Positions 6,528 through 59,001 of a stretch of DNA of 64,000 bases are shown here, in pieces. The position numbers were made by a program, and so were the translations under genes. Origin of the DNA: Nanobdellota archaeon (GTDB taxonomy: Archaea > Nanobdellota > Nanobdellia > Woesearchaeales > UBA583). The stretch lies in assembly GCA_022565615.1 (NCBI GenBank), contig JAIUMM010000003.1:1012-65011 (forward strand), in the 5' to 3' direction. Below the pieces are notes generated by a model that searched no databases, had not been told where the DNA came from, and worked only from the letters and a program-made list of their open reading frames with translations. Numbering within the stretch: the stretch's first letter is position 1; every line of letters starts with the position of its first letter.

Positions 6528-7163
6528 ATGGTTTTATCAGTAAGTGCAAATAGATCTGAGTTATTAAAATTAAAAGATAGAAGTAGAACTGCTCAAAAAG
6601 GGCATAGTTTACTTAAAAAAAAAAGAGATGGATTAATCATCGATTTCTTTAAACTTTTAGAACATTCAAAAGATGTAAGAGCTGAGATGAATGAACTATA
6701 TAAAAAAGCTCAAAAAGAATTAAAACTTGCAAGAATTAATTCATTTGAATTAGAACTTAAATTACTTGCAAAAGGAGCTCAAGGAAGAGCAACAGTTGAT
6801 TTTCAAAGCAAAAACATAATGGGTTTAAGTGTCCCACAAATTAAATCACTCTTTGAGAAAAGAAATTTTATTGAACAAAAAAAAACACCTTTTGCATCAT
6901 TGTATATTAGAAACACAATCTCTTCATATGATGAATTACTTGAAAAAATAGTTCAAGTTGCTGAAATTGAAACTGCATTAATTAAACTATTAAAAGAAAT
7001 TGAAAAAACTAAAAGAAGAGTAAATGGACTTGAGTTTTCAATTATACCTGAATTACAAGACACTCAAAAATATGTACAATTAGTACTAGATGAACAAGAA
7101 AGAGATGCATTAATTGCTCTTAAAAAAATTAAAGCTAAAATTGACAAGAAAAAATTAAATTAA
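6528..7163 (+). CDS. atpD: A/V-type ATP synthase subunit D
   Basis: N-terminal NRSELLKLKDRSRTAQKGHSLLKKKRDGLI and a coiled-coil 211-aa protein, typical of subunit D. No other ATPase subunit genes are adjacent. Confidence 0.85.
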   Translation: MVLSVSANRSELLKLKDRSRTAQKGHSLLKKKRDGLIIDFFKLLEHSKDVRAEMNELYKKAQKELKLARINSFELELKLLAKGAQGRATVDFQSKNIMGLSVPQIKSLFEKRNFIEQKKTPFASLYIRNTISSYDELLEKIVQVAEIETALIKLLKEIEKTKRRVNGLEFSIIPELQDTQKYVQLVLDEQERDALIALKKIKAKIDKKKLN

Positions 7164-7273
7164 AAAAAAATTTAATCTATATCAAATTACTTCTAAGTTA
7201 TTTTAAAAAAAATTTAACTTTAAAAAAAATGATTTTAGAATTTAAAAAATAATTAGAATAAATAAATTCAATT

Positions 7274-7350
7274 TTACTTCTTCATAAATCTTCGTAGTAA
7301 TGAAAAATCTCCTCATGCAGGAATAACTATTCCTGCTGACCTTTGTATAA
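7274..7350 (-). pseudogene. fossil secY 3' end (echo of the last ~25 codons)
   Basis: The reverse complement of 7274-7312 reads GDFSLLRRFMKK-stop, against the secY C-terminus EDFSLLRRFMKK-stop. Similarity is weaker up to about 7350, with an in-frame TGA (7313-7315) and indels. Confidence 0.65.
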
Positions 7351-7405
7351 GACATTCGTTACAAAGTAACTCAATCTCATTAATTATTAAAAATAAAAAA
7401 TAAAA

Positions 7406-8827
7406 CTATTTTTTCATAAATCTTCTCAATAATGAAAAATCTTCCATACTCTCCCTACTTAATTGCTGATAGAATTGATATACAATCATCACAAGTAATA
7501 AAATTCCAGTTCCCTGAGTAAGAGCTGAGAACATATCTGCAAATGCTGCAAGTAGACCTACTCCAATACCACCCATAATAGTTAATGGGCCAATATATCT
7601 CTCAAGTAGTCTCTCAATAATTCTTACATCTTTTCTAAATCCAGGAATTTGTAACCCTGAACTTACAATTTGTTTTGCTTGAGAATAAGGATCCATTCCT
7701 GCTGTTTGAACCCACAAGTATGCAAAGAGTGTCGAACCACCAATCATAAGAAGAGCATATAATAATGCATGCCAATAAGTCATAAATAATGATAAATCTG
7801 TACTTGGATCTAAAAAATTAACCGGGGTGAACCAAAGAGCCATTCCAGAAATAGGATTTCCTGCAGGATCATGTTGTCCAAAAATATTTGTAGATACAAA
7901 ATTTCTAAATGCACTTGCATCATCAGGATTATTTGGTTCAACTGCTAATGCTAACAATGACACATTTGCTAAAATTGCTGAAATAAAAATAACTGGAATT
8001 ACTCCTGCATAGAAAAAATTTAAAGGCCATTTATAACTTTGACCTCTTACTTTACCAAATGAAAGAGGAATTTGAACATTTACGGCTTGAAAAAATACAA
8101 TGATAAGTAAAAGTGCTATTGTAACAGCAATTGGTAATAATACATCATTTGATAGTTGAAGCCATTGAGTATTAATTATATATATGAAAAATAAAAATAT
8201 TTTTCCAATAGGATTTTCCCCACTACCTGGGAAAAATTCAGCACTTGCTGTAAATGGTGAAAATAATTGAACAAATACTGCTGCTCCAATACCTGCTGCA
8301 ATAAATATACTCACACCTGACCCAAACCCCCATTTTTTTACAATTTCATCTAAATAAAATATAATTAAACCTCCTAAAATCAATTGAAGTACAATCAAAA
8401 AGAAACTATTAGCAATAGTGGGATCTGCCGAGAGCCCTCCCAATTGTACAAATATGAAAGCTTGAAGTATAATAAATACAAAAGTTAAAATCTTGTGAGT
8501 ACCATGATAAATAAACTTTCCATCTTCTGTATTCATATCAAAATTTAAAATTCCAGCTCCTTTAAACAATTGAAGCATAATTGAAGCAGTAACAATTGGA
8601 CCAATTCCTAACGTCATTAACGTTCCAATACTTGCTCCAAAAAGTAATTCTAATCTTTGTAGTTGTTGAGCAACTTCTCCTTGAATTCCATATAAAGGTA
8701 TAGCTGATAAAAATAAGAATAAAAATAGTATACCTAATGTCCATGTTAATCTTGTCTTCAAATCCCTCTTTTTTTCAGGTGATTTCACCTCAGGAATATG
8801 CATAAGTAAATTTCTATAAAAAGACAT
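7406..8827 (-). CDS. secY: preprotein translocase subunit SecY
   Basis: 473 aa with 10 TM segments; archaeal SecY/Sec61-alpha-like N-terminus and C-terminal region (GLQIPGFR...IERLLERYI). TAG stop. Confidence 0.95.
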   Translation of the reverse strand: MSFYRNLLMHIPEVKSPEKKRDLKTRLTWTLGILFLFLFLSAIPLYGIQGEVAQQLQRLELLFGASIGTLMTLGIGPIVTASIMLQLFKGAGILNFDMNTEDGKFIYHGTHKILTFVFIILQAFIFVQLGGLSADPTIANSFFLIVLQLILGGLIIFYLDEIVKKWGFGSGVSIFIAAGIGAAVFVQLFSPFTASAEFFPGSGENPIGKIFLFFIYIINTQWLQLSNDVLLPIAVTIALLLIIVFFQAVNVQIPLSFGKVRGQSYKWPLNFFYAGVIPVIFISAILANVSLLALAVEPNNPDDASAFRNFVSTNIFGQHDPAGNPISGMALWFTPVNFLDPSTDLSLFMTYWHALLYALLMIGGSTLFAYLWVQTAGMDPYSQAKQIVSSGLQIPGFRKDVRIIERLLERYIGPLTIMGGIGVGLLAAFADMFSALTQGTGILLLVMIVYQFYQQLSRESMEDFSLLRRFMKK

Positions 8828-9010: not shown

Positions 9011-10463
<1,453 letters not shown>

Positions 10464-11930: not shown

Positions 11931-12120
11931 AATCATAATTTGAGAGAATTTGTTCCTCTGACTACTTTTTACTAAAGTACTCAAAAAATATAACTTTGCC
12001 ATCTGGCAATATCTGTGATTCAAAAATTAAAATATAAATTAATTATAATTTTAAACTATTTCTTCCCTCAACTACTTTTTACTAAAGTACTCAAAAAATA
12101 TAGCTTTGCTATATGAAAAT
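11931..12120 (-). repeat. two tandem ~110-nt units, each ending in a fossil L39e C-terminus
   Basis: A 46-nt block at 11955-12000 is repeated at 12065-12110 (about 41/46 identical). The reverse complements of 12043-12075 and 11933-11965 read VVEGRNSLKL-stop and VVRGTNSLKL-stop. Confidence 0.75.
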
Positions 12121-12291
12121 TTATACTTTTAAACTATTTTTTCTCCAACTTCTCTTCATACTCATCTGAGAAGGATGCACTCTTTTACCTTTTCCAAATT
12201 TTTTAATAATAGCAAACATTGGTGCCCATCTTGTTTGAGACTTAGCACTAATTAGTCTTGCTTTTTTTGCAGGATGTTTATATCTTGTCAT
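12121..12291 (-). CDS. rpl39e: 50S ribosomal protein L39e (eL39)
   Basis: 56-aa ORF below the ORF-track length cut-off: MTRYKHPAKKARLISAKSQTRWAPMFAIIKKFGKGKRVHPSQMSMKRSWRKNSLKV. It has the L39e pattern (K..RLa.a.kq.r..P.....K......hp..R.WRr). Confidence 0.85.
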   Translation of the reverse strand: MTRYKHPAKKARLISAKSQTRWAPMFAIIKKFGKGKRVHPSQMSMKRSWRKNSLKV

Positions 12292-42962: not shown

Positions 42963-43117
42963 GTAGTAATTTATATAAATTATGTAAGCATTTTAAAAGT
43001 AACTATTCACTAATAATAAAAACACTAGAATTATATAACTGTAATAAATTTGTAAAATAAATTTTTTTGTTAAATACAGTTCGAACGAACTTTGGTTAGA
43101 CGATTTATCTTCATTTC

Positions 43118-45944
<2,827 letters not shown>

Positions 45945-46069
45945 GAAATGAATTTTTTATTAGGAAGAAAAAACTTTGTTGTTTTCTTTTATCGTCTAAC
46001 CATCATTAAAAGTCACAAGTGACTTTTTCCGTTCTTCGTAAGTAATGTTAATTACTCACTGCATTAAAG

Positions 46070-46143
46070 TGGACCCGCCGGGATTTGAACCCGGGGCCCC
46101 CGCCTTGCAAGGGCGGTGCTCTACCGGACTGAGCTACAGGCCC
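46070..46143 (-). tRNA. tRNA-Ala (anticodon TGC), co-oriented directly upstream of 23S
   Basis: The reverse complement is GGGCCTGTAGCTCAGTCCGGTAGAGCACCGCCCTTGCAAGGCGGGGGCCCCGGGTTCAAATCCCGGCGGGTCCA. G3:U70 identity pair is present; anticodon loop CTTGCAA. Confidence 0.9.
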
Positions 46144-58753: not shown

Positions 58754-58825
58754 GCGTCTATAGCTCAGGGGTAGAGCGGCTGCCTTGTAAGCAGCAGGCC
58801 GTGGGTTCAAATCCCACTAGGCGCT
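58754..58825 (+). tRNA. tRNA-Thr (anticodon TGT)
   Basis: Acceptor GCGTCTA/TAGGCGC, D arm AGCTCAGGGGTAGAGC, anticodon loop CTTGTAA, T arm GTGGG-TTCAAAT-CCCAC. Confidence 0.9.
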
Positions 58826-58912
58826 TATTCTAAGCTTTATTGTGATTTTCACCCACTACGTGGTAAGCAAAAATTTATTCTAAATTTTTTTATATTTAGT
58901 AAAACTAAATAT

Positions 58913-58936
58913 TTCAAATCCCACTGGGCGCTTATT
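58913..58936 (+). repeat. 24-nt echo (1 mismatch) of the tRNA-Thr 3' end
   Basis: TTCAAATCCCACTAGGCGCTTATT at 58806-58829 is matched by TTCAAATCCCACTGGGCGCTTATT at 58913-58936. Confidence 0.8.
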
Positions 58937-59001
58937 TTAATTTTTTATATATCTTAGTAAAATAAAAAAATTTATATTCTTATAAACCTTATAGTAATAT
59001 A

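Follow-up and report, generated by a model that had tools for sequence, protein, structure and literature searches.

Why should the last codons of an intact, essential gene be repeated shortly behind its own stop codon, in untranslated DNA and in a form that would specify nearly the same amino acids? This question is raised by secY, the translocon gene of a Nanobdellota archaeon, in a stretch of 64,000 nucleotides (nt) of contig JAIUMM010000003.1 (assembly GCA_022565615.1, positions 1,012 to 65,011), to which, at its full length, we refer as the window. The last 12 codons of secY (the tail) recur 132 nt downstream as a near-copy (the echo), and an earlier note, made from the letters alone, took the echo for the dead scar of a xenologous gene replacement. 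Comparison with related genomes leads to a different view: tail and echo bracket a constrained and structured element of 68 nt, which is gained, lost and amplified among related genomes and is more than a one-off scar. The reading that we favour, tentatively and at somewhat less than an even chance, is that of a miniature non-coding site-specific cassette which would bring a surrogate tail and displace the resident one, the latter becoming the echo. Untranslated DNA with a protein-level signature in five uncultivated archaeal lineages is unusual, and existing metagenomes allow its follow-up.

The repeat at the secY 3' end

On the minus strand the secY 3' end (7406-7444) reads GAAGATTTTTCATTATTGAGAAGATTTATGAAAAAATAG, coding EDFSLLRRFMKK and the stop, and is preceded by ...ESM; with the Met461 codon (ATG) in front of the last 12 codons and TAG behind them, the first copy of the repeat occupies 7406..7447 (-). 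The second copy, the reverse complement of 7274-7312, reads GGAGATTTTTCATTACTACGAAGATTTATGAAGAAGTAA and would code for GDFSLLRRFMKK up to a TAA; it has no start codon and a TGA stands directly upstream of it. This TGA is created, in the frame of the echo, by the junction at 7313..7316 (-), a copy of the Met461 codon with one extra nucleotide (ATG+A), and it is at this ATG, followed by the additional nucleotide, that the homology between tail and echo ends. Direct re-reading of the sequence confirmed the distance of 132 nt, the 32/39 identical and 7/39 different nucleotides, the single non-synonymous change (E->G) beside four synonymously altered codons and a stop changed from TAG to TAA, as well as the 30 sense codons that follow the secY stop in frame before the TGA at 7313-7315. 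What did not survive is the weak similarity to secY which the earlier note had followed from the echo further upstream, as far as about 7350 (YKGQQE compared with YQFYQQL); it is at chance level in 4/4 genomes tested (p = 0.16-0.93). An impression, gained by eye, of further decayed copies downstream of the echo proved no better than shuffles.

Short-range repeats of comparable quality (at least 30/36 matches, offsets 45-600) occur at only three places window-wide, the secY echo being one of them, and a chance origin is therefore excluded. Mis-assembly, a concern raised at the outset, is ruled out: run SRR13748698 yields a Logan contig with 100% identity to the window along 3100 nt, and another run belonging to that study has a contig which covers 7251-7401 with zero differences.

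The same layout, that is the secY stop, the element, ATG plus one nucleotide and an echo of the genome's own tail, is found in three further lineages of Woesearchaeota: L004 (SecY 87% identical), L002, equal to L013 (85%), and L007 (77%), the last on a 1.09-Mb contig. Their element homologues follow secY and measure 62-74 nt, and their echoes read FTLLRRFMRK, FTLLRQFMKK and FSLLRKLMRK, respectively. L014 (SecY 57%) has its insert, a long hairpin, at the same position and joined to the echo in the same way (ATG + C + GGGGAC...); no homology was detected between this insert and the element, and the repeat of L014 runs about 20 nt beyond the stop. All five echo-bearing genomes thus have the junction of ATG and a single nucleotide, the latter being A in three of them, G in one and C in one, and secY is intact in all five. 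The offset between tail and echo is 132 nt in the window and 110, 116 and 147 nt in relatives, or, in the assembly of L002, which has an N gap there, 209 nt; it is a multiple of three in the window alone, as opposed to a remainder of 2 in L004, L002 (across the N gap) and L007. The runs in which tail and echo are identical are 5 nt long in L014 and reach about 25 nt in L004, with no position common to all. The earlier note had proposed a comparison with the secY 3' ends of relatives, and had regarded the same 132-nt structure, present and identical in distant ones, as a sign of a functional element; the architecture does recur in distant relatives, but the sequence is not identical there.

A constrained two-hairpin element between the copies

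Behind the secY stop there is an AT-rich spacer with T-runs at 7381..7405 (-), beginning with TTTTATTTTTTATTTTT, which looks like a putative archaeal oligo-T terminator; its length among relatives is about 25, 3, 0 and 16 nt. Then follows the element at 7313..7380 (-), 68 nt forming two hairpins. The first, H1 (7347..7380, minus strand), has an outer stem of 7 bp, two pairs of which are G.U; its internal loop UGA/GAAU is invariant and its apical stem-loop varies. H1 is joined by a single-stranded linker (7337..7346, minus strand), in which the alignment reveals an invariant AGGTC motif, to the second, H2 (7317..7336, minus strand), with 9 bp between GCAGGAATA and TATTCCTGC.

The fold of the element on the secY-sense strand has z = -4.5. 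According to the table of pairs across genomes, the outer stem of H1 has undergone a compensatory A-U to G-C change, while in its apical stem the sequence is wholly different between genomes with complementarity always kept; in H2 an A-U pair became U-A in L004 and L002, and A-U became G-C in L007. With the apical stem left aside, the element shows 76-91% identity between genomes, compared with a difference of 46-58% at the 4-fold degenerate sites of secY in the same genomes, and since its identity is so high where 4-fold sites have diverged, the element is constrained as well as structured. The outer stem of H1 with its G.U pairs forms only in the sense RNA, neither on the antisense strand nor in DNA, which, together with the fold on the sense strand, indicates a role as RNA in the 3' untranslated region (UTR) of secY. 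The element most likely acts as RNA on the secY-sense strand and is itself selected.

No match above the gathering score was obtained with Rfam 15 in the window except for rRNAs and tRNAs, and a search of 7150-7500 gave chance matches only (expect values above 2). Readings of H1 as a hammerhead, K-turn, H/ACA or C/D structure were rejected by inspection, as the motifs do not fit. The element is present once in the 64-kb window, and across the 193 kb compared only secY-linked copies were found; a pattern scan of metagenomes yielded a single GC-rich chance match, in L011. The two-hairpin element is accordingly a new conserved RNA-like motif attached to a translocon gene and without a match in Rfam. 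An open reading frame (ORF) of 37 codons starting with ATG (MSYTKVSRNSYSCMRRFFITTKIYEEVKLNLFILIIF, 7242-7355, minus strand) passes through element and echo in a different frame; it was rejected as a gene, its start being absent in L004 and conservation lacking, and in annotation neither this ORF nor the echo should be called.

Differences between tail and echo

With the first codon excluded and the five genomes pooled, tail and echo differ in 16 codons, 15 of them synonymously and one non-synonymously. Among the synonymous changes there are AGT->TCA switches of serine and AGA<->CGA switches of arginine codons, and the only non-synonymous one, Thr->Ser, falls on a position where the family has Ser in some members and Thr in others. 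Random mutation, simulated 20,000 times with three transition biases, never gave so low a non-synonymous count. The first codon is changed from Glu to Gly in four genomes; this codon and the extra nucleotide at the junction seem to belong to the end of the insert itself. The ratio of 15:1 over five genomes upholds the argument of the earlier note that an excess of synonymous changes speaks against neutral decay of the copies in place. In L014, moreover, 8/25 nt differ in the non-coding part of the repeat as against 2/33 nt in the coding part, a contrast which fits an allelic origin and not in-place decay. The divergence between tail and echo in the window, about 15%, equals that of the window from its nearest relatives.

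The echo has no means of being translated. In three genomes a TGA stands directly before it, and a start codon or ORF that would open into the echo is not conserved. Several candidate routes were considered and rejected. Readthrough of TAG and TGA, or bypass, would depend on the in-frame spacing of 132 nt, which is peculiar to the window, the frame relation being unconserved. A small ORF or a frameshift leading into the echo is contradicted by the absence in L004 of the ATG found in the window's element, and by the different frame offsets of the window and L007. A leaderless peptide with the junction ATG as its start would be read in the +1 frame, in which the products, as read from the sequences, are conserved neither in length nor in sequence. 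Finally, a scan for the bulge-helix-bulge (BHB) motif of archaeal introns, or its relaxed form hBH, was empty in L004 and L007 and gave weak candidates at non-homologous positions in the window and L014, and direct repeats are unable to pair in the way that an exon-exon helix demands.

Presence, absence and probable exchange among relatives

The two closest relatives of the window, L012 (95% identical in amino acids, 13.9% different in nucleotides) and L029 (97% and 12.8%), have clean empty sites. Empty sites, with secY directly followed by the flank, were also noticed in L005, L006, L028, L008, L009, L015, L016, L022 and L023. Counted as lineages, seven besides L012 and L029 have secY running straight into the flank. 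At the other extreme stands L002/L013 with a tandem array, where the sequencing depth of the element (38.9, run X5) compared with that of the flanks (15-16.5) corresponds to about 2-3 copies, the copy number probably being heterogeneous. The last tandem unit of L002 retains only 10 nt of echo, from which it follows that the echo is dispensable. Such tandem units break assemblies, as is seen from the N gap in L002 and from contig ends in L003.

A further line of evidence comes from a soda-lake run (X3), in which a 268-nt contig spanning 7348-7612 has 23 differences from the window. All those listed (20/23) lie within 7454-7577, which amounts to a divergence of about 16%, and the contig is identical to the window over 7382-7453, a segment that takes in the complete tail, the non-coding spacer and the 9 nt in front of the ATG. 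The breakpoint is thus at most 9 nt away from the ATG with which the repeat starts. This mosaic suggests that the upstream copy travels between strains together with spacer and element. It also sustains the view, already expressed in the earlier note, that the differences between the copies arose in separate lineages: a strain whose secY body is diverged by 16% has a tail identical to that of the window, which fits an allelic origin.

Interpretation

The reading to which we give preference would work as follows. The cassette would extend from 7313 to 7444 and consist of the surrogate last 12 codons with their stop, the T-rich spacer and the 68-nt element, which would end by imperfectly repeating the Met461 codon (ATG + 1 nt). 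Its point of insertion would be the boundary of the Met461 codon with the 12 terminal codons of the resident gene; SecY would be kept intact by the tail that the cassette brings, and the resident tail would be shifted downstream as an untranslated echo. Each copy would have served as the working SecY tail of a separate, related genome until insertion or exchange, and under such a cassette the differences would be nearly only synonymous because the copies diverged as working tails in different genomes. Recombination of tail with echo would remove the cassette and restore a clean secY, as in the empty sites; unequal exchange between the direct repeats would amplify it in tandem; and recombination at the repeats would carry it into empty alleles of related strains. 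It may be moved by the homologous recombination of the host, or in trans by a recombinase.

A parallel within the window, at 58754-58940 (+), concerns the 3' end of tRNA-Thr(TGT). At a distance of 107 nt downstream, positions 58913-58940 (+) repeat, but for 2 mismatches, the last 19 nt of the tRNA gene and the adjoining 9 nt of flanking DNA (TTCAAATCCCACTAGGCGCTTATTCTAA, 58806-58833). The insert enclosed by the two copies measures about 80 nt, has a CCAC/GTGG hairpin and is unrelated to the secY element. By its layout this echo of a tRNA 3' end qualifies as a classic att-like footprint, and duplications of 3' ends around small inserts are therefore not limited to secY in the genome of the window.

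Were the cassette correct, it would represent a minimal natural insertion which shields an essential host gene with a spare end; Woesearchaeota strains diverged by about 15% would still be exchanging DNA at the secY locus, and secY would hold a recurrent, tolerated insertion site.

Several observations weigh against the cassette. No recombinase and no full-size parent element with a secY tail was found, and four scans of viral contigs were empty. The divergence of the element follows the SecY tree, which fits vertical descent with repeated loss equally well. Each echo encodes the lineage-specific tail of its own genome (RRFMKK, RRFMRK, RQFMKK), so that the cassette would need donors with the same tail, or a crossover leaving both copies from one source. 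Comparisons with nearest neighbours are inconsistent as to which copy is the resident: the echo of the window is nearer to the L012 tail (5 vs 7 differences), its tail is nearer to the L029 tail (6 vs 8), and in L007 it is the tail, not the echo, that is nearest to the tail of a relative. The synonymous divergence of tail and echo in L007 is near saturation, which would fit an old duplicate under selection. The mosaic strain, too, is represented by a single Logan contig of 268 nt and low depth (3.5x).

Some of these observations fit vertical inheritance, an alternative which we regard as unlikely, though the strongest among the rivals. The element would then be an old cis-acting RNA of the secY 3' UTR, which would serve the stability or localisation of the mRNA, its termination or the binding of a protein; a tandem duplication long ago would have given the second tail, occasional unequal exchange or conversion would keep the echo similar, losses would be mediated by the repeats, and nothing would move horizontally. 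Besides the congruence of element and SecY divergence and the echoes that track their own tails, this explanation is favoured by a constrained element folding as sense-strand RNA, and by the tandem units with their heterogeneous copy number, which show that unequal exchange happens. It meets its main difficulty in the 15:1 ratio, which cannot be reached by neutral decay in place or by conversion, since about 75% non-synonymous changes are expected of an unselected echo. It also requires at least 4-5 independent precise losses, including those in both closest relatives, and leaves unexplained the mosaic strain with its breakpoint at the start of the repeat and the unrelated insert of L014 with the same junction.

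Rather improbable, in our opinion, is the footprint of a conventional integrase-driven element, a plasmid or virus, for which the secY 3' end would have served as attB and tail and echo would be attL and attR; the 68-nt element would be a remnant, or a minimal mobilisable version, of the attP arms, with the integrase supplied in trans. A gene whose 3' end is duplicated around an insert and which stays intact agrees well with this possibility, and so do the empty sites in close relatives, the tandem copies, the two unrelated inserts at one junction and the echo of tRNA-Thr. Against it, none of the five loci contains an integrase or has one as a neighbour, the adjacent genes being ATP-synt_D, CutA1, peptidase M17 and the like; the viral contigs scanned carry neither the secY tail nor the element; the identical stretch between the repeats is short (5-25 nt) and not fixed in position; and the G.U pairs in the H1 stem favour a role as RNA over that of an arm site in duplex DNA.

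A long shot is the more far-reaching idea that the element is an undescribed self-propagating non-coding RNA/DNA element at one codon boundary, or that it directs a new kind of archaeal mRNA processing with the echo as the true C-terminal exon. In the former case an element would neutralise its own insertion into an essential gene with a spare gene end, and in each case DPANN archaea would have a new class of element or mechanism.

Expression of the echo as such, in which RNA processing or recoding would join codon 461 to an alternative C-terminal exon selected in place, appears very improbable. It would account for the strong protein-level signature in five genomes, the near synonymous saturation in L007 and the ATG with one nucleotide kept at the junction immediately downstream of a structured RNA. 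However, besides the unconserved BHB candidates, the repeats that cannot form an exon-exon helix, the in-frame spacing found only in the window (vs L004, L002, L007) and the lack of a conserved way into the echo, the terminal unit of L002 has lost its echo, and the product would be the same protein, hence of no evident benefit.

Replacement of the whole secY by a xenologue leaving its last 12 codons as a decaying scar, as the earlier note had it, agrees with the synonymous-only differences and is otherwise barely credible: the DNA between the copies is not secY-derived, a conserved structured element recurs at the same place in several lineages with own-tail echoes, the two closest relatives have clean empty sites and one genome has tandem units, and secY, examined for such replacement, diverges ordinarily and evenly along its whole length from its closest relatives.

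Genomic setting

The window comes from an AT-rich archaeon of the DPANN type (27% GC), whose nearest named relatives are metagenome-assembled genomes of Candidatus Woesearchaeota. The secY gene (7406..8827, minus strand; stop TAG at 7406-7408), taken from the ORF list, is intact and encodes 473 amino acids assigned by PF00344 and by more than 4000 SecY homologs. Downstream, the intergenic region is bounded by the convergent gene of V-type ATPase subunit D (6528..7163, plus strand), for which PF01813 was found in the identical locus L001. Directly upstream of secY and on the same strand lies the 16S rRNA gene (9012-10463, minus strand). The 23S gene (43107-45955, minus strand) is 33 kb away from it, so the two rRNA genes, both archaeal, are unlinked; tRNA-Ala (46069-46143) is situated just upstream of the 23S gene. 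A near-perfect direct repeat of 66 nt, intergenic and with a spacing of 110 nt, was noticed at 11947-12012 and 12057-12122 (plus strand; CTACTTTTTACTAAAGTACTCAAAAAATATA[A/G]CTTTGC).

The interval from secY to the V-ATPase D gene is very variable between close relatives (L002, L004, L005, L006, L007, L029), in which it holds CutA1, a 146-amino-acid ORF, peptidase M17, a DHH phosphoesterase or nothing, and it is a local hotspot of rearrangement. In L023-L027 an (AT)n microsatellite is located about 95-115 nt past the secY stop and differs in length between samples with identical SecY; the same loci have two perfect hairpins (GGATACTTTGTATCC, CAACTACTTTGTAGTTG) after the secY stop and no echo. 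The record behind L013/L002 (CAZULG010000009.1), with protein P0126, bears the title 'uncultured Methanosarcinales archaeon', yet its SecY is 80-85% identical to the Woesearchaeota type and its gene neighbourhood is that of the window, because of which we consider it probably a mislabelled or contaminated bin.

Comparison with known systems

Template and variable repeat (TR/VR) pairs of diversity-generating retroelements, common in DPANN archaea, resemble the secY locus in having a non-coding near-copy just downstream of a gene 3' end. They differ from it in that the secY repeat is only 39 nt long, the target is SecY and the differences are synonymous; such a retroelement was rejected, as the mismatches are not adenine-specific (in the window 2/7 at echo adenines or 4/7 at tail adenines). 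Bypass gaps, known from phage T4 gene 60 and the mitochondrial byp elements, likewise place a hairpin-containing gap between matched codons; in secY, by contrast, the gap comes only after a complete tail and its stop, the relation of the frames is not the same from genome to genome, and landing at the junction ATG would be in the wrong frame.

As in miniature inverted-repeat transposable elements (MITEs) and small palindromic repeats, the secY element is small, non-coding and hairpin-forming. Unlike MITEs it occupies, as far as seen, a single site per genome, it lacks terminal inverted repeats, and its duplication covers about 40 nt or more with copies differing in the way alleles do. A dispersed MITE was rejected, there being no copies at unrelated sites in the 64 kb and 193 kb mentioned above. 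Homing elements (group I introns, inteins and homing-endonuclease genes) share with the secY insert a patchy presence at an identical position of an essential conserved gene, and signs of exchange between diverged strains with the breakpoint at the edge of the insertion; the secY insert, unlike them, has no nuclease gene, ribozyme or BHB fold, and needs no splicing because it supplies its own stop codon and tail.

Integrative elements residing at the 3' ends of tRNA or protein genes, such as those of the archaeal SSV or pNOB8 type and the bacterial P4-like ones, are inserted by a tyrosine recombinase and carry a surrogate 3' end of their target. From these the secY insert differs in its size of 68-104 nt without an integrase, any other gene or a conserved ORF, in repeats that are 79-95% identical and do not appear to share a fixed identical core, and in being a conserved, structured RNA-like element restricted to this site (193 kb compared). 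As in integrative elements, however, a direct repeat of the target gene 3' end brackets the insert and the gene remains intact, close relatives have clean empty sites, copies occur in tandem, and different inserts are found at one site. The mechanism that we find most likely for the secY repeat would be an extension of familiar recombination biology.

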